64,000 bases of DNA from Shigella phage vB_SsoM_JK08: the sequence record LR877332. The stretch is one strand, 5' to 3'. The first letter of the stretch is position 1. Each line of letters starts with the position of its first letter. A model generated the notes under the pieces. It ran no database searches, had not been told where the DNA came from, and saw only the letters and a program-made list of their open reading frames with translations. Of this stretch, positions 30,858 to 63,952 are shown piece after piece. The position numbers were made by a program, and so were the translations under genes.

Positions 30858-31274
30858 TTAAATGTAAATATTTTTGCCGTAATACTTATACCAGTGTGGC
30901 TTCATTAAAATTTTTTCATCGAGTCGTTGTTGACTCAACTTAATAGCTGATTTGCATGGATTATAATCATTTTTCCATTCTACTGGAATATCGCTGATGT
31001 CAGGAACTTCAGTATCTTTTATACTGAACCCGCGTTTTAAGCATTCCGTTATAATGTCCGATTGACGCTTTCGCAAAAATTCTAACTTATCGTAAAAGAA
31101 AGTAACATGACCAGAACCTAAAATAAATTTAGAAGATATTTTAAAATCTTTAACGCGCTTACCGTTTGCCACATGCTTACGAACTATACCAAAAACACGC
31201 GGCAATTCACGGTATTCTGCGATTAAATGTTGATCAGCAAGTTCAGATACTAAAGTCAAATTAATACGAGTCAT
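30858..31274 (-). CDS. denV: endonuclease V (pyrimidine dimer DNA glycosylase)
   Basis: 138-aa ORF matching recalled T4 endonuclease V over full length. Confidence 0.9.
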
Positions 31275-31299
31275 TTTATCCCTCCAAGTAACTGTGAAT

Positions 31300-31328
31300 A
31301 TATTATCACAATTCTAGGAGAAAGTAAA
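31300..31328 (-). promoter_or_regulatory. sigma70-type promoter (-35 TTTACT, -10 TGaTAATAT)
   Basis: RC of 31300-31305 = TAATAT with TGA; 17-nt spacer. Confidence 0.45.
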
Positions 31329-31333
31329 CAACT

Positions 31334-31864
<531 letters not shown>

Positions 31865-34147: not shown

Positions 34148-34741
34148 TTATTTCAGAGAATTAATGTATTCCTGAACATCGGCAGAGGTAGTTTCAACCC
34201 CAGAAATATTACCGTTAAAGGTTTCAACTCGAGCAAGGGTATCTTCAATATCAACCTTAGTCAGTGCTGCAATTTCAACTACATCATCAGCAGTACTAAT
34301 TCCAAGGGCATTTGCTGCACGAGTTTCACGGATATATTCCAATTTAACCGCAAGTTCTTGACGAGCATCATCTAACTCAACTACTTTCTTGGCGATTTCA
34401 ATTCGCATTTCAGCATAACCGTCAGCCTTAGTAGTCAACTGCTCAGCTGTTCGACGATATAGTAAACCGAGTTTAGCATGCATTGTTACATCTTGGCCTT
34501 CGGAAAGAAGTTTACGAATTTCACGCTCTTTTGATTCGGCCTGTCGATTCTTTTCGATAACAAGTTCACGAATACGTTTTTCTTCGTTAATAGATTTAAC
34601 AGAAGCAGTTTTTAGATCTTTAATTTTATCAAGTAGTTTTGCTGCTGCAGCAGTATACTGTTCTTCGACAGATAGATTTTTAGCCATAGCAGAACCAAGT
34701 TTAGTGCGAATAAACTCAACAATTTTCTTCAGTGTGTTCAT
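34148..34741 (-). CDS. coiled-coil protein with PspA/IM30-like architecture
   Basis: 197-aa ORF, continuous heptad-rich helix; composition resembles phage-shock protein A family. Confidence 0.4.
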
Positions 34742-34842
34742 AGTATTTCCTTAGGTTAATTGAGATTTAAAATCCGTAGGAGTATAATACTCTATCGTCA
34801 AATTATAGGCTCATAATATCTCAATCATGAGCCTGCGTAAAC

Positions 34843-35335: not shown

Positions 35336-35899
35336 TTATTTACCTAGTTTACTTATTATAGCTTCTGCAGCAGCTTTTAGCTTAGATGCAGTGTTAATAC
35401 GATTTTTAATTTCAGTATACGCATCGCCAAGAACATCAAGGCTATCAGAATAAACACTTACACTATTGCGTTCGCTATTTGAAATAGAACCTTTAGTTTT
35501 GCGGTCAAAATCGGTGTACACGTCTTGAAGATCGCGGGCTGCCTTCTTTGCATCATCCAATGCATCAAGAGCTTTATTCAAAGCATTAACGTATTTTTTA
35601 GTGTCGAACATATTCTTAGAAATTTTAACAGGTGCGCGTTCAGGAGTAGCTAACACAGATTTAGGAACCTGAGCGCCAGATGCCAATTTCTTAGAAATTT
35701 TGAAAAATGCTTTATTGAATTTATTTTCTTGACTCATTGTAAAAGAACTATTATCGATGTTGTACATTTCAATAGCTTTAGCTTTCCACTTAAGAAAATC
35801 GCCGCGGTCTTTTGGGTCCAATTGGAAGAATACTTTAGTAAGATCTGCTTCAGATGGTAATTTTGCTGCTTCGGTTAAAAATTCGGCATAGGTTTTCAT
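35336..35899 (-). CDS. internal-protein-like protein with capsid-targeting N-terminus
   Basis: 187-aa ORF; N-terminus MKTYAEFLTE resembles the T4 internal-protein targeting sequence MKTYQEFIAE with an LxE protease-site motif. Confidence 0.55.
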   Translation of the reverse strand: MKTYAEFLTEAAKLPSEADLTKVFFQLDPKDRGDFLKWKAKAIEMYNIDNSSFTMSQENKFNKAFFKISKKLASGAQVPKSVLATPERAPVKISKNMFDTKKYVNALNKALDALDDAKKAARDLQDVYTDFDRKTKGSISNSERNSVSVYSDSLDVLGDAYTEIKNRINTASKLKAAAEAIISKLGK

Positions 35900-35989
35900 T
35901 TAAAATCCTTGAAATAATTTATCGGTTGGTTATTAATTATTTATTACTTTGTTACTATCCGTAACAGCGTTATCCGAGTGATTCAAACT

Positions 35990-36016
35990 AAAAAGCCCCA
36001 ACCTTTCGGTCGGGGC
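35990..36016 (-). terminator. intrinsic terminator (GAAA-loop hairpin + U-run), copy 1
   Basis: gccccaacc-tttc-ggtcggggc with A-run; identical copy at 36545-36572. Confidence 0.6.
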
Positions 36017-36024
36017 TAAGAATG

Positions 36025-36498
36025 TCATTTGATTTGTTTAGCAGACCAAATGCGGTCTTTAATAATTTTTTGGATGTCTTCAACATACTCAAGAGAGTGA
36101 ACATGTGGATTATCTTTGAAACTATAAGCACGGGCTAACTTTTGGCCTTCGGTTTTGATTACTAAAAGCTCTTTAAGGATAGCTTCATATTTGGAGATAA
36201 TTCCTTTAACAATATTTTTCTCTTGTGTGACTTTAGGATCTTCTTTAGGAGCAGGTTTACCTGAAGCCTTTGCAAAAGCAGCTCCAGTAGCAACTAAACT
36301 TTTCCAAGCCATACTAACTGCATTCCCTGTAAATCCTTCGGCTTTCATATCACGAGCAAATTGGAATCGTGATTCATCGGAAGCATCTTTATAGGAATAT
36401 TTACCCGCGGCAATGGCAGCTTTTGCAACAGCTTGAATTTCAGTGCTAGATGCTTCATTTAACACCGCTTCATTTAAAAATTGAGTATATGATTTCAT
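36025..36498 (-). CDS. internal-protein-like protein with capsid-targeting N-terminus
   Basis: 157-aa ORF; N-terminus MKSYTQFLNE; late promoter upstream. Confidence 0.55.
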   Translation of the reverse strand: MKSYTQFLNEAVLNEASSTEIQAVAKAAIAAGKYSYKDASDESRFQFARDMKAEGFTGNAVSMAWKSLVATGAAFAKASGKPAPKEDPKVTQEKNIVKGIISKYEAILKELLVIKTEGQKLARAYSFKDNPHVHSLEYVEDIQKIIKDRIWSAKQIK

Positions 36499-36534
36499 CT
36501 TATTTCCTGTTTTAATTCGGGGTTTTAATATACT

Positions 36535-36542
36535 TATTTATA
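36535..36542 (-). promoter_or_regulatory. late promoter TATAAATA
   Basis: RC of 36535-36542 = TATAAATA, about 37 nt upstream of the ATG at 36498. Confidence 0.55.
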
Positions 36543-36544
36543 CT

Positions 36545-36572
36545 AAAAAGCCCCAACCTTTCGGTCGGGGCT
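36545..36572 (-). terminator. intrinsic terminator, copy 2 (ends the tRNA/stable-RNA transcript)
   Basis: same hairpin sequence as 35990-36016. Confidence 0.6.
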
Positions 36573-36579
36573 AAGCCTT

Positions 36580-36885
36580 GCGGCAACCTTGTCGGGGTTC
36601 CACCTTCTAAGGCAAGTGTTTGTACGAAACGCCGGGATTCGAACCCGGTTATTAAGCAGTTGACGCTACTCAATATTTTTAAAAGGCCATATCTCGACCA
36701 TATCCGAACGTTCCGTCAAAAACGCTACTCGGCTTACGGCAAAGATATTTCCTCGAATCGATAATTCGGTGCGCCGTTTCTGCTGTGATATAAGGGGACA
36801 TTAACAAAACATAAAGATTTATTAATACCAGTCCTTAAACAGGGAACATCAGTCCGACGACTTGCCGGTAGCGACCCGGCTTCTT
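36580..36885 (-). ncRNA. candidate stable small RNA region with a tRNA-like T-arm (cf. T4 stable RNA species 1/2)
   Basis: non-coding stretch between tRNA-Arg and the terminator; T-arm-like ccggg-attcgaa-cccgg at 36632-36648 preceded by a 7-nt acceptor-like segment with a near-complement about 150 nt away. Confidence 0.3.
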
Positions 36886-36888
36886 GTC

Positions 36889-36964
36889 TGGTCGAGGCAG
36901 TAGGGATCGAACCTACGACCCAGGACTTAGAAGGTCCTTGCTCTTCCTTCTGAGCTATGCCTCG
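36889..36964 (-). tRNA. tRNA-Arg (anticodon UCU), CCA encoded
   Basis: manual cloverleaf: acceptor cgaggca/tgcctcg, T-arm gtagg-gatcgaa-cctac, anticodon loop CUUCUAA. Confidence 0.8.
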
Positions 36965-36968
36965 TATT

Positions 36969-37043
36969 TGGCGGACGTGATAGGATTCGAACCTATAACC
37001 AATCGCTTAACAGGCGATCGCTCTGCCATTGAGCTACACATCC
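36969..37043 (-). tRNA. tRNA-Asn (anticodon GUU), CCA encoded
   Basis: manual cloverleaf with 4-bp D stem, GG in D loop, anticodon loop CUGUUAA, T loop UUCGAAU. Confidence 0.65.
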
Positions 37044-37047
37044 AAAT

Positions 37048-37134
37048 TGGTGGGGAGTGGTGGAGTCGAACCACCCGAGTCGCAATGACAATGAATTTAC
37101 AGTCCACACCGCTACCTCTACGGGATAACTCCCC
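37048..37134 (-). tRNA. tRNA-Tyr-like (anticodon GUA), long variable arm, atypical D-arm
   Basis: acceptor ggggagt/actcccc, T-arm ggtgg-agtcgaa-ccacc, anticodon loop CUGUAAA; anticodon stem has 2 G-U pairs and D-arm connector is irregular. Confidence 0.5.
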
Positions 37135-37143
37135 AAATTAATT

Positions 37144-37218
37144 TGGTGGCCCTGGGTGGAATTGAACCACCATCTGGCGATTATGAGTCGCTTGCTTGAA
37201 CCTTCCAGCTACAGGGCC
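37144..37218 (-). tRNA. tRNA with CAU anticodon (Met or Ile2)
   Basis: acceptor ggccctg/cagggcc, anticodon loop CUCAUAA. Confidence 0.75.
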
Positions 37219-37219
37219 T

Positions 37220-37295
37220 TGGTGCTGATTGACGGAATCGAACCGCCGACCTTCTCATTACAAGTGAGTTGCTCTACCTACTGAGCTAAATCAGC
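37220..37295 (-). tRNA. tRNA-Thr (anticodon UGU)
   Basis: acceptor gctgatt/aatcagc, anticodon loop CUUGUAA. Confidence 0.75.
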
Positions 37296-37300
37296 AAAAC

Positions 37301-37390
37301 TGGCGGAGGCGATAGGATTTGAACCTATGAGTCGCCGGAGCGACTGCCGGTTTTCAAGACCGGTGCATTAAACCACTCTGCCACGCCTCC
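37301..37390 (-). tRNA. tRNA-Ser (anticodon UGA), long variable arm
   Basis: acceptor ggaggcg/cgcctcc, variable stem gtcgc/gcgac, anticodon loop CUUGAAA. Confidence 0.75.
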
Positions 37391-37392
37391 AG

Positions 37393-37466
37393 TCTCCGTG
37401 GCAGGATTTGAACCTACGACATTCTGCTCCCAAAGCAGACGCTCTACCAAACTGAGCTACACGGAG
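37393..37466 (-). tRNA. tRNA-Pro (anticodon UGG), CCA not encoded
   Basis: acceptor ctccgtg/cacggag, anticodon loop UUUGGGA. Confidence 0.7.
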
Positions 37467-37476
37467 TAAATTAAAT

Positions 37477-37550
<74 letters not shown>

Positions 37551-37555
37551 AAATT

Positions 37556-37642
37556 TGGTGCGAGAAGTGGGACTCGAACCCACAAGGAAATCATTCCGCA
37601 GCATTTTAAGTGCTGTGCCTTTACCAATTTGGCCATTCTCGC
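37556..37642 (-). tRNA. tRNA-Leu (anticodon UAA), long variable arm
   Basis: acceptor gcgagaa/ttctcgc, variable stem ggaa/ttcc, anticodon loop CUUAAAA. Confidence 0.75.
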
Positions 37643-37643
37643 G

Positions 37644-37716
37644 CTGGGAATAAAGGACTCGAACCTTTGCATCCTGGAATCAAAATCCAGTGCCTTACCA
37701 ACTTGGCTAATTCCCA
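37644..37716 (-). tRNA. tRNA-Gln (anticodon UUG), CCA not encoded
   Basis: acceptor tgggaat/attccca, anticodon stem ctgga/tccag, loop UUUUGAU. Confidence 0.7.
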
Positions 37717-37813
37717 ATTATTAACAAAGGCTCTTAAGCAAGAACCCTTGATGATAGAGGGTATTAATCAGTGCGATATGAGTTAATAATAACAAATAAT
37801 TCTTAAAGCATAT

Positions 37814-38101
37814 TTACCATTTATAATAATACATATTTACGATGCATTCAAGACCCAAAGGATTCTTGAAAATATCATATTCAAGAGGACCTTTTTCTGT
37901 TTCAATAAAGAAATCAAAATTTACTGTATTAAATTTACGTTCTTCCTTCACTAATTTAACTTGAGAAGATGAACGGTCAATGTAAACCTTTTCAACTTCA
38001 AAACATGTTAAAATGCCATAATCATCAATCAAAGCTTTAGCCGCGTCTTGATCATATTTATATCCATTTTCAATGGATGATACTTTCGCATAAAGAATCA
38101 T
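37814..38101 (-). CDS. hypothetical protein
   Basis: 95-aa ORF. Confidence 0.5.
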   Translation of the reverse strand: MILYAKVSSIENGYKYDQDAAKALIDDYGILTCFEVEKVYIDRSSSQVKLVKEERKFNTVNFDFFIETEKGPLEYDIFKNPLGLECIVNMYYYKW

Positions 38102-38103
38102 TA

Positions 38104-38502
38104 TCAGCCTTCATCAACAATAGTGTGAGTATTAGCATTTACGATTTGCCACCAATCAAAGCGATTAGAATCCATCGGTTTGTTTTCATTTTCTTTGATA
38201 ATGTCACGGAGTTCATCTTCAGAGAATGCTTTAGCAATTAAATCGGTATACCCACCACGGGGATAATAATTATCACCTGCAAACAAAAGGAAATTTACCT
38301 TCCCGGAAGCAACATATGCTTCCTTAGGATACTTGTTTCCTGCGTGGTCAACCACTTCAATATAACGGTAAGGAATATCGGTTCTTTCAACCCATTGCCA
38401 TGCCGCCGCAGGGGAATCGAAAGCATCTACACCTAAACGATTATCTTCATCTTTAGACGGATTATTTTCGTAATCCGCATATACATAATATTCAACGTTC
38501 AT
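38104..38502 (-). CDS. hypothetical protein
   Basis: 132-aa ORF. Confidence 0.5.
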   Translation of the reverse strand: MNVEYYVYADYENNPSKDEDNRLGVDAFDSPAAAWQWVERTDIPYRYIEVVDHAGNKYPKEAYVASGKVNFLLFAGDNYYPRGGYTDLIAKAFSEDELRDIIKENENKPMDSNRFDWWQIVNANTHTIVDEG

Positions 38503-38687
38503 TATTCACCTTTAGAAATTTTATCCATAACAATAGCAATTAAACCAATTAAAAATGCTACTACAAGTGAAAACACATTTTCTGCTGTAGTCAATAATCC
38601 ACATATAAATCCAACAAACATTGAAAAACTAAAAGCGGAAGCAGAAATTGCAATAGCAACATTTCGAATTAATTCACAACGTTTCAT
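38502..38687 (-). CDS. small membrane protein
   Basis: 61-aa ORF, almost entirely hydrophobic. Confidence 0.5.
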   Translation of the reverse strand: MKRCELIRNVAIAISASAFSFSMFVGFICGLLTTAENVFSLVVAFLIGLIAIVMDKISKGE

Positions 38688-38716
38688 TTTATTCTCCTCA
38701 GTAGTAGATAGGGTAA

Positions 38717-38744
38717 TAGTATCACTACCCTATCTAAAAGTAAA
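38717..38744 (-). promoter_or_regulatory. early promoter inside stem-loop cassette (PeSL-like)
   Basis: -10 TGaTACTAT (RC of 38717-38725) embedded in inverted repeat gataggg...ccctatc; -35 TTTACT. Confidence 0.5.
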
Positions 38745-38745
38745 C

Positions 38746-38991
38746 TTATTTTTTACGAAAAATTGATTTATTTTCTGCTGCCCATTTTTCAATAACTGCA
38801 GCAGGACCAGTAACAACAATTTTATCACCGTAATCTTCTGCGGCGAGTTGACCGAAATTATCTAATGCATCACGAAGAACTCCATGAGGCATTTCACCCA
38901 TTTTATCTTTCTTGCCAGTGTAAATAAACTCAACTTTTACATCAGCAGTTTCAGCAATAAATTCTTGGTAAGTTTTCATTTTGATTTCCAT
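38746..38991 (-). CDS. internal-protein-like protein (capsid-targeting sequence MKTYQEFIAE)
   Basis: 81-aa ORF; residues 5-14 MKTYQEFIAE match the T4 internal-protein targeting sequence; true start may be the second ATG (38979). Confidence 0.6.
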   Translation of the reverse strand: MEIKMKTYQEFIAETADVKVEFIYTGKKDKMGEMPHGVLRDALDNFGQLAAEDYGDKIVVTGPAAVIEKWAAENKSIFRKK

Positions 38992-39014
38992 TTGGTTTTG
39001 TTTTGATAGGGTAA

Positions 39015-39042
39015 TAGTATCACAACTAAAACCCTATGTAAA
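39015..39042 (-). promoter_or_regulatory. early promoter inside stem-loop cassette (PeSL-like)
   Basis: gtaatagtatcac -10 region flanked by tagggt/accctat; -35 GTTTACA; shared downstream block gtaaacaactttgtgaaattattttaa. Confidence 0.5.
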
Positions 39043-39055
39043 CAACTTTGTGAAA

Positions 39056-39313
39056 TTATTTTAAATCTTCTAATCGTTTCTTCATCTTAGAACCATTTTT
39101 AGCAATTTCTCCTGCATCGGAGCATAATGCTAAAAGTGCTTTAACTTTAGTTTGGTCTCCTTTAAAAGATGAAGGATCGACCGCAGCAGCAAGTTCTTTA
39201 ATACGAGAGAAAAGACGCTCAGCTTCAGCTAAAGCCATTCCAAGCTTTACTTCCATACCGTGGGAAGATTCGGTGATAGTAGTTTTTGTAGCAAACTCTT
39301 TGAAAGTTTTCAT
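39056..39313 (-). CDS. internal-protein-like protein (N-terminus MKTFKEFATK)
   Basis: 85-aa ORF with targeting-sequence-like N-terminus and ITE motif. Confidence 0.5.
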   Translation of the reverse strand: MKTFKEFATKTTITESSHGMEVKLGMALAEAERLFSRIKELAAAVDPSSFKGDQTKVKALLALCSDAGEIAKNGSKMKKRLEDLK

Positions 39314-39344
39314 TTTTATTTTCCTAATTAATTTTGATGAGGTA

Positions 39345-39372
39345 ATAGTATCACTACCTCATCAGTATGTAA
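39345..39372 (-). promoter_or_regulatory. early promoter inside stem-loop cassette (PeSL-like)
   Basis: gatgaggta-atagtatcac-tacctcatc inverted repeat around -10; -35 GTTTACA; near-identical to the cassette at 39001-39060. Confidence 0.5.
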
Positions 39373-39386
39373 ACAACTTTGTGAAA

Positions 39387-40071
<685 letters not shown>

Positions 40072-40072
<1 letters not shown>

Positions 40073-40797
40073 TATAGTACCTTTAGTGTATTTTTAATTT
40101 TAGAAAAAAGTTCTTCAAGAGAACCATCGTTTGTAATTACTAAATCGCCATCACGAATTGGCAATCCAGCTTCTGTAATATGTGTATCATTGGATTTTTG
40201 ACCAGGACGAACTACATGAATTACTGTAGCACCCATCGCCCTAGCCGCATCCATTTCATGATCTTGACGGGTATCAGGAACGATATAATAATCATAACCT
40301 GAGTTAAATTTATCAAGATAATCTAAAGCAAATAATTTTACCCAGTACATGCGGTCGAAGTTATTAACAATCAAATCCGTACCTAGGGCTTGCATCAGAC
40401 GACGGACTGACCATTGATCTTCAATATTATTTATAACGTCAATAATCTTGTTAAATGCTACGGAATTAACTGATTCTTGTCCTTCGTCATCAAAAACAAA
40501 CACACCTTTAATTGGGCTTTTACCATTAAGATAGCAAAATGCTTGTTCCATAATCGTGATTACTTCTAATTTAGTTAGATTTAAATTAGTCTCACGATCA
40601 TAGTCAATTCCTTCAAACTCTTTACGAGTTAAGCAAGGATAGTCGGTATTTGCTGCAAATACTCCCCATGCATAAGCCAATGCATCCTTAATAGGACCAG
40701 CAAGTTGGTATTTAACTGCAGAATAATTGCTCATGATAAAATCAGCAGTAGTATCTTTTCCACTACGCTTTACACCGCTTAAAAAGATTAGTTTCAT
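40072..40797 (-). CDS. 1: deoxynucleoside monophosphate kinase gp1
   Basis: 241-aa ORF; P-loop GVKRSGKDT; synteny 57A-1-3-2-4. Confidence 0.88.

Positions 40798-60814: not shown

Positions 60815-63952
<3,138 letters not shown>

Follow-up and report, generated by a model that had tools for sequence, protein, structure and literature searches.

Predicted early promoter cassettes with embedded inverted repeats at the IP1 hyperplastic locus of a T4/T6-type phage

The window, a 64,000-nucleotide stretch of Shigella phage vB_SsoM_JK08 (LR877332), very probably contains the IP1 hyperplastic locus of a T4/T6-type phage, in which early promoters precede the genes, recombination falls at the promoter cassettes and a hairpin around the -10 element is maintained by selection. 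The observation is correct but already described: the polymorphism and the promoter/stem-loop elements have been on record since 1994, with further treatment in 2010 and 2014, and GenBank records already carry annotations of these cassettes. Over this region the window matches sequenced coliphages and Yersinia phages at 100% identity and T6 at 99%, and by sequence it belongs to Tequatrovirus. About 860 INPHARED genomes gave matches. The order of genes on the minus strand is gene 1, 57A, 57B (Acb1), an ip5-like gene, an ip6-like gene, trna.4/.3/.2 and ten tRNAs, which is the order of T4 except for the internal-protein (IP) genes (names are from T4 and MG781190). The position between 57B and trna.4 is one of the two IP loci of T-even phages, the other being denV to e. 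The features of the locus are listed below.

39387..39845, minus strand: 57B (Acb1, anti-CBASS), the conserved left flank (Pfam PF23474 Acb1, E 2.7e-60)
39314..39402, minus strand: cassette 3, predicted early promoter of the ip5-like gene, with A/T-rich tract 39375-39395, -35 GTTTAC 39369-39374, 18-nt spacer, TGn and -10 TACTAT 39345-39350, hairpin arms 39335-39344 and 39355-39364, Shine-Dalgarno AGGAAA and ATG 39311-39313
39056..39313, minus strand: ip5-like gene, whose 85-aa product falls in phrog_3499 'internal head protein' (E 1.2e-49)
38980..39071, minus strand: cassette 2, predicted early promoter of the ip6-like gene, with A/T-rich tract 39044-39064, -35 GTTTAC 39038-39043, -10 TACTAT 39014-39019 and an imperfect hairpin 38998-39018 / 39025-39045
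38944..38987, minus strand: second part of the repeated module, the Shine-Dalgarno and capsid-targeting codons of ip6, 77% identical to the matching part of ip5 at 39278-39321
38746..38979, minus strand: ip6-like gene, whose product has 77 aa counted from MKTYQEFIAE and falls in phrog_8111 'internal virion protein' (E 1.2e-52)
38688..38745, minus strand: cassette 1, predicted early promoter of trna.4-.3-.2, with -35 GTTTAC 38740-38745, -10 TACTAT 38716-38721, hairpin arms 38705-38715 and 38726-38736, and Shine-Dalgarno GAGGAG 38694-38699 with a RegB-type GGAG inside it
38502..38687, minus strand: trna.4, 61 aa, the conserved right flank (phrog_1692; annotated trna.4 in T4 and relatives)

Both flanks agree with the annotations of relatives, which name the left-flank gene 57B or Acb1. 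The initial annotation had described a 61-aa membrane protein, which fits the trna.4 product with its two hydrophobic segments (hydropathy). It had also proposed two internal-protein-like genes with capsid-targeting N-termini. This was borne out, as the products beginning MKTFKEFATK and MKTYQEFIAE belong to PHROG internal head and internal virion families with E values of about 1e-50, and the two genes are named ip5 and ip6 in MG781190. The ip5-like N-terminus MKTFKEFATKTTITE (MKTFKEFATK...) is likely a prohead-protease leader like that of T4 IPI. Neither protein had a match in a Pfam or PDB sequence search. The interval 38746..38991 had been given as the MKTYQEFIAE gene; the leader is present, but that open reading frame begins at an upstream ATG (MEIKM...) while the leader starts at 38979. 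Use of this ATG (38989-38991), which is in frame, would extend the ip6-like protein by MEIK, and the MG781190 annotation puts the ip6 start at the capsid-targeting MKTYQEFIAE (38979). As in T4, cassette 1 precedes trna.4 and not a leader-bearing ORF.

Three cassettes are present at the positions first reported, as determined by both a repeat search and a 14-mer count. Exactly three copies of the 14-mer GGTAATAGTATCAC are present in the 64 kb (38712-38725, 39010-39023 and 39341-39354), a count of at least three being reached in 0 of 100 shuffles, and the repeat search placed 38703-38773, 39001-39071 and 39332-39402 in one family. The description of the cassettes as near-identical holds for cassettes 2 and 3 (about 85% alike; 86% over 71 nt) but not for cassette 1, which is 61% identical to cassette 2, is 55-66% identical to both others over the promoter and has in common with them only the 14-nt core and the -35. 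Similarly, a block that had been assigned to all three cassettes is found in cassettes 2 and 3 but not in cassette 1: with up to 3 mismatches allowed, the 28-nt TGTAAACAACTTTGTGAAATTATTTTAA occurs only twice (39037-39064 and 39368-39395), and cassette 1 retains only its GTAAAC (38740-38745). This block, made up of the A/T tract and the -35, had been placed after the -10, whereas in the orientation of the genes (minus strand) it comes before it. Thus, the earlier observation was confirmed in part, for coordinates and inverted repeats but not for block count, block order or near-identity, and at the level of sequence its interpretation is supported by the promoter, cargo and hotspot evidence.

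The repeated module is longer than was originally noted. It additionally includes the D-L-K-stop codons of the upstream gene (57B or ip5), which are the last codons of 57B in the case of cassette 3, and on the other side it extends through the Shine-Dalgarno into the next gene, of which it takes in the first ~7 codons. The repeat shared by cassettes 2 and 3 measures about 113-125 nt, and the blastn alignments of a related locus, L035, overlap by 113 nt on both copies. Together with the first codons of ip5 and ip6, cassettes 2 and 3 form a direct repeat with a spacing of 331 nt. From the spacings of the copies, recombination between neighboring elements is predicted to generate circles of 331 bp (ip5) and 298 bp (ip6).

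Each cassette appears to be a T4-type early promoter, as first claimed, judging from its sequence, its identity to the T4 ipI promoter and public annotation. All three cassettes contain GTTTAC-N18-TGnTACTAT, and a consensus scan read cassettes 2 and 3 as TTTACA-17-TACTAT with TG before the -10 (for the T4 early promoter consensus see PMC1524935, and for the PST/T4 PeSL promoter consensus, TTTACW-N17-TAYWAT, PMC4122927). The A/T-rich tract upstream of the promoter is TTTAAAATAATTTCACAAAGTT, and a Shine-Dalgarno and ATG lie 20-35 nt downstream. Cassette 3 is identical to the T4 ipI upstream region at 98 of 98 positions. The annotation of NC_055724 carries a 'predicted early promoter' at all three cassette sites, and the annotators of OL960581 likewise put early promoters there. 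These promoters would be read by host sigma-70 RNA polymerase, and after each of them come a brief A-rich leader, a Shine-Dalgarno and an ATG. With such elements in front of each, three autonomous early transcription units are predicted: the ip5-like gene, the ip6-like gene and trna.4-.3-.2. In the literature consulted, a search found no 5'- or 3'-end RNA data for this phage or for T4, and no genome-wide end mapping of T4.

Elements of this kind were reported at the T-even IP loci by Repoila, Tetart, Bouet & Krisch in 1994 (EMBO J 13:4181; summarized in PMC2839356, PMC4122927 and PMC12373910). As known from these later summaries, those elements show no difference of substance from the window: they lie at the 57B to trna.4 IP1 locus, they accompany ORFs with a conserved N-terminal capsid-targeting leader, they consist of an early promoter of T4 type and a stem-loop that is AT-rich and varies in size, and the IP genes are polymorphic in number, order and identity. 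The window cassettes have all four properties, namely the IP locus, leader-bearing ORFs, an early promoter with an AT-rich stem-loop, and polymorphism.

The cassettes had also been called PeSL-like, which is the term that Arbiol et al. 2010 (PMC2839356) used for the elements seen by Repoila et al. 1994 at T-even IP loci. The term is apt for the A/T tract, the promoter and the hyperplastic region, but the cassettes are not canonical PeSLs. The PeSLs of RB49/phi1, PST/T4 and nt-1/KVP40 (PMC2839356, PMC4122927) similarly contain an A/T tract, a -35/-10 early promoter, a Shine-Dalgarno, an ATG and a stem-loop, lie in hyperplastic regions beside indels between close relatives, and have been proposed to provide portable homology for modular shuffling. 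The window cassettes agree with them in an A/T-rich region with a sigma-70-like promoter and in a hyperplastic location next to indels or replacements. In contrast, the PeSL stem-loop is situated just upstream of the promoter, has GGGG/CCCC stems and is an effective terminator, while that of the window has AT-rich stems and no U-tract and lies across the spacer, -10 and start site. The overlap with the promoter and the missing U-tract identify the window cassettes as analogues and not as canonical PeSLs. In cassette 1 the -35 immediately adjoins the ip6 stop codon, so there is no room upstream for a stem-loop. Additionally, mini-circles have been shown for the RB49/phi1 PeSLs.

The locus is a real and active exchange point for injected proteins. 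Across 34 related loci, the interval from 57B to trna.4 occurs in 23 arrangements, with 0-5 IP genes per locus drawn from about 20 families, and homology breakpoints fall within cassettes or just past the capsid-targeting codons. The proposal of a recombination hotspot is therefore upheld, since the gene content of orthologous loci is not identical and the breakpoints are in the cassettes. The clearest case is L035, which equals the window minus ip5 through a clean 331-bp cassette-to-cassette indel; both ends of the indel lie within an identical 34-nt block (A/T tract and -35), and on either side the two sequences agree at 98-99% over 8 kb. When the window is compared with T4 and with locus L034, homology is kept through cassette 3 and the first ~7 codons, is lost in the body of the IP gene, and resumes at the -35 or -10 core of the trna.4 cassette (the -35 for L034). 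Moreover, four cassettes (the T4 trna.4 cassette, L028_832, L028_1164 and L019_1555) are chimeras of the window cassette types joined in the GTGATACTATTACC core, and L019_1555 also carries a 19-nt slippage duplication. With breakpoints in cassettes and chimeric cassettes, the recombination level of the explanation is shown by comparative genomics. Relatives at a greater distance have many IP genes that directly adjoin 57B or one another without any cassette, indicating that cassettes are not the sole route to variation.

We propose that the cassettes act as portable homology of 14 to about 125 nt, including D-L-K-stop upstream and the MKT[YF][QK]EF codons downstream. General homologous recombination of the phage would cross over in whichever identical stretch exists, and whole promoter-plus-gene units would be deleted, inserted or replaced with their neighbors undisturbed. 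A simpler account is a tandem duplication of gene and promoter, in which the inverted repeats are incidental and the locus is no more recombinogenic than its neighborhood. While the direct repeat with its 331-nt spacing is what a duplication would leave, ip5 and ip6 fall in different PHROG families with the leader alone in common, 34 loci have 23 architectures, chimeric cassettes exist, and the hairpin z-scores and covariation given below are far beyond controls. This account is scarcely tenable and is already contradicted by the gene content of the 34 loci, the L035 indel and the breakpoints against T4 and L034.

The -10 had been reported to lie inside an inverted repeat, and this is true of all three cassettes. 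The repeat is perfect in cassette 1 (11 bp) and cassette 3 (10 bp) and imperfect in cassette 2 (a 21-nt pair, 81%). The hairpin arms lie between the -35 and about +10, enclosing the -10 and the likely start site, and the stems are 10-13 bp long and mostly A/T with 3-4 G/C pairs. Predicted stabilities are dG -18.5 (z -7.8) for cassette 1, dG -13.2 (z -4.7) for cassette 2 and dG -17.4 (z -7.7) for cassette 3, and the RNA fold of cassette 3 reaches -20.5 kcal/mol (z -4.1). Over 49 unique cassettes with differing arm sequences, the mean dG was -10.8 kcal/mol and the mean z was -3.9, while most other early promoters, serving as a control, were without a hairpin and had z near 0.

Although the arms differ in sequence, they stay complementary and covary over about 40 distinct cassettes. 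In-register pairing was found in 62% of cells compared with 29-54% when the partner was slid, and 0 of 500 shuffles reached the observed covariation score. The covarying arms indicate that the inverted repeat is a selected structure. A single consensus hairpin register was rejected: the stems fall into at least three registers, their axis moves by as much as 6 nt, and a slide of -3 still leaves 54% paired, so that a covariation count based on one structure understates the signal. Within T4 positions 1-77 kb the layout was found at 4 of 5 IP-locus promoters and at 3 of 22 other matches (Fisher p = 0.009), with enrichment at both T4 IP loci. About a quarter of the related cassettes have a weak hairpin or none (L006_850, L010, L015_834, L021, L036 and L039), as do some chimeras, suggesting that the structure is dispensable at least in the short term. 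An Rfam search (E <= 1, 36400-40200) returned the downstream tRNAs only and no match in the cassettes.

A selected structure at exchange points raises the question of a canonical PeSL or an integron-like mobile system, in which the stem-loop is a real terminator and/or a structure-specific recombination signal. A cruciform or folded strand would then be seen by a nuclease or recombinase, for example endonuclease VII, and the IP genes would move as promoter-gene mini-circles in a targeted reaction. Integron attC gene cassettes form arrays of adaptive genes, their flanking sites keep structure over sequence, and excision as circles has been proposed for them. The window resembles them as a small promoter-adjacent array of adaptive genes with structure-conserving flanking sites; unlike integrons, it has no integrase, its crossovers are scattered, each cassette has a promoter, and general homologous recombination would suffice. 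The preservation of structure and not of sequence recalls structure-recognized sites, the layout is enriched at both IP loci, and for the RB49/phi1 PeSLs, mini-circles were shown by experiment and a structure-binding protein was speculated upon (PMC2839356). Additionally, the annotators of OL960581 predicted overlapping rho-independent terminators at T4-type cassettes (WebGeSTer, TransTermHP).

Nevertheless, we consider a canonical PeSL or integron-like system quite unlikely. The junctions are scattered over the A/T tract/-35 block, the -35, the -10 core and the sequence after the capsid-targeting codons, as expected if exchange is driven by homology and not if crossing over is confined to a single fixed site. 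In the window the stem-loop and promoter overlap, while in defined PeSLs the stem-loop lies upstream (PMC4122927), and Arbiol et al. call the IP elements analogues, not homologues (PMC2839356). A canonical intrinsic terminator seems improbable: a scan of 37700-40200 found 0, and the stems are followed by A-rich sequence with no U-tract, making efficient intrinsic termination unlikely. Furthermore, a late promoter, TATAAATA, lies within gene 1 (40428-40435), and late expression of the head proteins from it would require read-through of the hairpins.

The position of the promoter also recalls the switches of T4 e, soc and I-TevI-III (PMC2330249), in which a promoter lies in or overlaps a hairpin and promoter-proximal transcripts are without the 5' arm, whereas those that read through are able to fold. 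A translational switch of this type, with the hairpin sequestering the ribosome-binding site in read-through transcripts while the promoter's own transcripts are translated, is very unlikely here. T4 is known to place promoters within, or shortly before, hairpins that sequester (PMC2330249), cassette-promoter transcripts would be without the 5' arm, and in the T4 denV cassette the 3' arm of a long stem includes the Shine-Dalgarno GGAG. However, the T4 switches pair an RBS-sequestering hairpin with a late or middle internal promoter, while the window has an early promoter and a ribosome-binding site outside the stem. In all three cassettes the stable stem leaves out the Shine-Dalgarno and AUG, which are found 7 to ~25 nt past the 3' arm in unpaired A-rich sequence. 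For cassettes 2 and 3 they are unpaired in both predicted structures, MFE and centroid; for cassette 1 this holds for the centroid, and the MFE shows weak pairing around the Shine-Dalgarno. Thus, the ribosome-binding site is not sequestered, and the RBS-sequestering switch was rejected.

Control at the DNA level would assign the palindrome itself a function, with the -10 inverted repeat serving as the operator of a dimeric regulator or forming a supercoil-dependent cruciform that masks the -10 and tunes the time of firing. The inverted repeat is centered on or beside the -10 in every register seen, and with DNA energy parameters the stems form on both strands, with values of about -8 to -10 kcal/mol. 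There is little difference in stability between sense and antisense folds, the sense RNA being marginally more stable (33 vs 16 cassettes, p = 0.03, with sequences that are not independent). Since the folds are this close and G-U counts have only a weak sense bias, an RNA-level role cannot be separated from a DNA-level one by stability. Arm sequences are not conserved (GATGAGGTA, GATAGGGTA, GGTCTATAG, TAGGACTA, GAATTGTGA and others), which argues against a sequence-specific operator, the symmetry axis moves up to 6 nt between cassette types, and the DNA-fold z-scores are modest (-1.8 to -3.3). We know of no candidate regulator, and control of this kind seems very improbable.

Our preferred reading, offered as a guess, is that the hairpin has a stability or insulator role. 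A transcript from a cassette's own promoter is without the 5' arm, so an RNA hairpin would form only in read-through transcripts, which may arise early from the preceding cassette and late from TATAAATA inside gene 1. Lying between cistrons, it could there serve the upstream one as a 3'-end, stability or insulator hairpin. As part of this proposal, the hairpin would be superimposed on the next promoter because spacers of 58-76 nt leave no other room.

The covariation of the arms and the enrichment at IP loci, in a structure that looks like no canonical terminator and does not trap the RBS, also leave room for a structure-selected signal specific to these loci, which we regard as unlikely. At the DNA level, folded DNA or a cruciform would target strand breaks and concentrate gene exchange, in an integron-like manner without an integrase. 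At the RNA level, a processing signal would set the early and late dosage of the injected anti-defence proteins.

The ip5-like and ip6-like products are packaged and injected proteins that, by analogy with T4 Ip1-3, probably act against host defences. In T4, Ip1, Ip2 and Ip3 are specific inhibitors, each directed at a different GmrSD nuclease, a type IV restriction enzyme (PMC12373910), and the exchange locus adjoins the anti-CBASS gene acb1. Swapping of promoter-plus-gene units at defined repeats may help to predict differences in host range between near-identical therapeutic phages, and the cassettes could serve as natural 'landing pads' for engineering.

Lastly, the idea that the tRNA cluster is driven by cassette 1 was rejected. 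A separate middle promoter of MotA type serves the cluster (TGCTTTA 37804-37810, TATTAT 37786-37791), and tRNA transcription is described as initiating mainly there (Broida & Abelson 1985, as cited in PMC2330249). Cassette 1 would thus contribute to the tRNAs by read-through at most.

The interval 37800-40100 is 100% identical to several Tequatrovirus genomes, including Escherichia phage D5505 and Yersinia phage PYps35T (859 records match), and phage T6 shares 99% identity with the 711-bp core of the cassette region. Gene order and names follow the annotated T4 genome and near-identical annotated records. All genes at the locus are on the minus strand.

Genes at the locus, named from the annotation of relatives unless a family match is given
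40072-40797, minus: gene 1, dNMP kinase
39842-40072, minus: 57A
39387-39845, minus: 57B, that is Acb1, an anti-CBASS cyclic-nucleotide phosphodiesterase (Pfam PF23474, E 2.7e-60)
39056-39313, minus: ip5-like gene, 85 aa
38746-38979, minus: ip6-like gene, 77 aa
38502-38687, minus: trna.4
38104-38502, minus: trna.3
37814-38101, minus: trna.2
36892-37716, minus: ten tRNA genes

A single gene, ipI, occupies the 57B-to-trna.4 interval in T4, and the locus is therefore the 'IP1 locus' (internal protein) of T-even phages. Because 57B is Acb1, the variable IP genes directly adjoin another counter-defence gene; public records often still label 57B 'RNA ligase' or 'hypothetical'. Immediately past the trna.2 stop and ahead of the tRNA cluster is a middle promoter of MotA type (TGCTTTA, 12 nt, TATTAT; 37786-37810, minus), which agrees with one reported to drive T4 tRNA transcription. 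With this promoter of their own, the tRNAs do not depend on cassette 1.

Three predicted early-promoter cassettes are present, numbered 1 (ahead of trna.4-.3-.2), 2 (ahead of the ip6-like gene) and 3 (ahead of the ip5-like gene). The 64 kb hold exactly three copies of the 14-mer GGTAATAGTATCAC, starting at 38712, 39010 and 39341, a number that no shuffle reached, and a repeat search placed 38703-38773, 39001-39071 and 39332-39402 in one family. The initial annotation called all three near-identical, which holds for cassettes 2 and 3 (86%) but not for cassette 1, which is 61% identical to cassette 2 and whose promoter is 55-66% identical to those of the others. Likewise, the 28-nt block it assigned to each cassette is confined to cassettes 2 and 3, and cassette 1 retains GTAAAC alone. 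The inverted repeat it described around the -10 was borne out: perfect repeats flank the 14-mer in cassettes 1 (11 bp) and 3 (10 bp), and cassette 2 has an imperfect 21-nt pair.

On the minus strand, each cassette reads A/T-rich tract (TTTAAAATAATTTCACAAAGTT in cassettes 2 and 3), GTTTAC, 18-nt spacer, TGnTACTAT, an A-rich leader of ~20-35 nt with a Shine-Dalgarno, and ATG. The cassette 2/3 repeat, longer than the initial annotation described, begins within coding sequence, in the final codons of the upstream gene (57B and ip5 both end D-L-K-stop), and extends through the Shine-Dalgarno to about the first seven codons downstream. In cassette 1, the -35 directly touches the ip6 stop codon. GTTTAC-N18-TACTAT was found in all three cassettes, and a promoter consensus scan gave TTTACA-17-TACTAT for cassettes 2 and 3, with TG ahead of the -10. 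T4 early promoters are characterised by GTTTAC at -36 to -31 (PMC1524935); for PST/T4 promoter-early stem-loops (PeSLs), the reported promoter consensus is TTTACW-N17-TAYWAT (PMC4122927). The 98 nt preceding the ip5 ATG match those preceding T4 ipI base for base. Three 'predicted early promoter' features in the Yersinia phage fPS-65 record coincide with cassettes 1-3, and in the phage SA20RB record T4 early promoters overlap predicted terminators at T4-type cassettes.

As proposed initially, the cargo genes are internal-protein-like. The ip5-like product matches PHROG phrog_3499 'internal head protein' (E 1e-49) and the ip6-like product phrog_8111 'internal virion protein' (E 1e-52); the genes carry the names ip5 and ip6 in MG781190. 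Pfam and structure-database sequence searches gave neither product a Pfam match or a solved-structure relative. Both begin with capsid-targeting leaders, MKTYQEFIAE (ip6-like) and MKTFKEFATKTTITE (ip5-like), the latter similar to the T4 IPI leader MKTFKEFTSTTTPV. For ip5 and ip6, we know of nothing comparable to the inhibition of GmrSD by T4 Ip1-3. Each of T4 Ip1, Ip2 and Ip3 inhibits a distinct type IV restriction enzyme of the GmrSD kind (PMC12373910). The ip6 start differs among public records (38977-38991, minus), giving MEIKMKTYQ... (81 aa) where an in-frame ATG further upstream is used, or MKTYQEFIAE (77 aa), and a 'MEIKM'- or 'METKM'-type extension is also present in the related loci L004, L016 and L035. 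Production of the longer form would leave the capsid-targeting leader away from the N-terminus.

The comparison of gene content covered T4 and 36 IMG/VR loci that encode 57B relatives. Among the 34 with a recognisable trna.4, the 57B-to-trna.4 interval holds from 0 (L009) to 5 (L020) leader-bearing genes, belonging to about 20 sequence families in 23 different arrangements; such differences agree with the recombination hotspot claimed at the outset. L035 shares about 98-99% identity with the window across 8 kb and lacks exactly cassette 3 and ip5, a clean 331-bp indel whose ends fall within an identical 34-nt block, GATTTAAAATAATTTCACAAAGTTGTTTACATA. Compared with T4 (ipI) and with L034 (a different, 102-aa IP gene), near-identity lasts from 57B to codon seven of the IP gene, with cassette 3 included, is lost in the body of that gene, and resumes in the trna.4 cassette, at the -35 for L034 and at the -10 core for T4. 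In T4, the cassette ahead of trna.4 is chimeric: cassette 2 is matched by the 5' half and cassette 1 by the 3' half. Further chimeric cassettes (L028_832, L028_1164 and L019_1555) join within the invariant GTGATACTATTACC core, and L019_1555 has an added 19-nt tandem slippage duplication, GATACTATTACCTCATCAA. The chimeras at L019 ~1470-1555 and L028 ~760-1164 (57B on plus) have mismatched hairpin arms, for example 5' arm ATAGGGTA with 3' arm TACCTCAT, and resemble relics left by crossover or slippage within the -10 core. The junctions of the compared loci gave no evidence of a single fixed crossover site; they are spread over all shared stretches, and thus ordinary homologous recombination on short homologies accounts for them. 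Many IP genes of more distant relatives have no cassette and overlap one another or 57B (ATGA overlaps), indicating that cassettes are a feature of the T4/T6-like subgroup and not a universal requirement.

The hairpin arms occupy the spacer and the discriminator/initial transcribed region, which places the -10 in the loop or stem top; the probable start site, some 7 nt downstream of the -10, falls in the 3' arm. Folded as RNA, the inverted repeats are most stable in cassettes 3 and 1 (-17 to -18.5 kcal/mol) and less so in cassette 2 (-13), with z of -4.7 to -7.8 in 40-nt segments and -3.2 to -4.1 in 76-86-nt contexts. For 49 distinct cassettes of the compared loci, folded from the -35 to 16 nt beyond the -10, mean dG was -10.8 kcal/mol and mean z -3.9, and in about three quarters a stem of 8-14 pairs encloses the -10. 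The arms differ widely yet remain complementary (GATGAGGTA/TACCTCATC, AGATAGGGTA/TACCCTATCT, GGTCTATAG/CTATAGACC, GGGCTxTAG/CTATAGCCC, TAGGACTAT/ATAGTCCTA, GATGGGATAA/TTATCCCATC). When 38 cassettes were aligned gap-free in a fixed register, 62% of cells were paired, versus 29-54% with the 3' partner slid; 11 of 14 pairs vary on both sides, and none of 500 shuffles reached the observed covariation score. Because several stem registers coexist, fixed-register covariation understates the signal.

In the window, z is close to 0 for most of the remaining early promoters (35179, 24511, 20924, 19483, 8533 and others). In T4 1-77000, a -10-enclosing hairpin precedes ipI, trna.4, ipIII and ipII, and elsewhere only regB, motB and motB.2, that is 4/5 IP-locus promoters versus 3/22 other matches (Fisher p = 0.009). 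The stem at the second T4 IP locus differs (GAATTGTGA/TCACAATTC). The non-IP T4 promoters with a -10 hairpin (L003 / L042, minus) are at 62797, 8218 and 7215, ahead of regB, motB.2 and motB. In the window, an early promoter at 34790-34842 (minus), directly adjoining the upstream stop codon and ahead of an e.6-like gene (34148-34741), has its -10 within the hairpin GGCTCAT...ATGAGCC (dG -15.7, z -5.2); the layout is thus present outside IP loci too.

Judged from its position in the sequence, the hairpin would be unable to form in a transcript from the cassette's own promoter and could form only in read-through RNA. The hairpin does not have the form of a canonical intrinsic terminator, as the stem is followed by A-rich sequence and a scan gave no terminator-like site. 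IP head proteins are probably expressed late from TATAAATA inside gene 1 (40428-40435), a route that depends on reading through the hairpins and so speaks against strong termination. A ribosome-binding-site trap of the kind described for T4 e and I-TevI (PMC2330249) does not fit, with Shine-Dalgarno and AUG outside the stem, and the arms vary too much to be a sequence-specific operator. An Rfam search matched no family to the cassette hairpins. The sense RNA folds slightly more stably than the antisense (p = 0.03), a difference too small to tell an RNA-level role from a DNA-level one. Within our main explanation, the preferred though somewhat doubtful reading is that the hairpin is an intercistronic RNA element of the upstream cistron, with a role in processing, in insulation or in protecting the 3' end; spacers of just 58-76 nt would account for its overlap with the next promoter. 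Late-promoter motifs TATAAATA on the minus strand lie at 40428-40435, inside gene 1, and at 38055-38062, inside trna.2, with a count in the window not above chance (13 found, 11 expected). The gene 1 motif could allow late read-through of 57A, 57B, ip5 and ip6 bearing the cassette hairpins.

A cassette-flanked IP locus is already known. A passage in Arbiol et al. 2010 relates the observation of Repoila et al. at T-even IP loci (PMC2839356), and Comeau et al. 2014, where they recall the 1994 observation, extend PeSLs to the PST/T4 pair (PMC4122927). Given these descriptions, the cassette finding is a correct rediscovery; the observation in the initial annotation is confirmed in part and its PeSL-like interpretation is supported. 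The cassettes share with published PeSLs the promoter, A/T tract, Shine-Dalgarno/ATG, hyperplastic location and association with indels. In contrast, the PeSL stem-loop lies upstream of the promoter, which is not its placement here.

vB_SsoM_JK08 carries no IP genes at the second T4 IP locus, ipII/ipIII, which lies between e and denV.

Features at the e-denV junction
31334-31828, minus: gene e
30858-31274, minus: denV

The junction (31275-31333, minus) contains one early promoter, with GTTTAC at 31324-31329 and the -10 hairpin GAATTGTGA/TCACAGTTAC. This cassette looks like the T4 ipIII-upstream cassette fused to the denV leader, as expected from a cassette-to-cassette deletion.

Lastly, a third IP-like locus lies at 35336-36572 (minus), between an e.8-like gene and the tRNA cluster, and has two paralogues of phrog_2280 (function unknown) with leader-like N-termini.

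Genes at the third locus
36025-36498, minus: phrog_2280 paralogue, 157 aa, MKSYTQFLNEA...
35336-35899, minus: phrog_2280 paralogue, 187 aa, MKTYAEFLTEA...

An identical 30-nt GC-rich terminator hairpin, AGCCCCGACCGAAAGGTTGGGGCTTTTTAG, stands ahead of each paralogue (36543-36572 and 35988-36017), and a late promoter, TATAAATA, follows the first copy immediately (36535-36542). Unlike the early-cassette design, this locus looks like a terminator-plus-late-promoter cassette pair.
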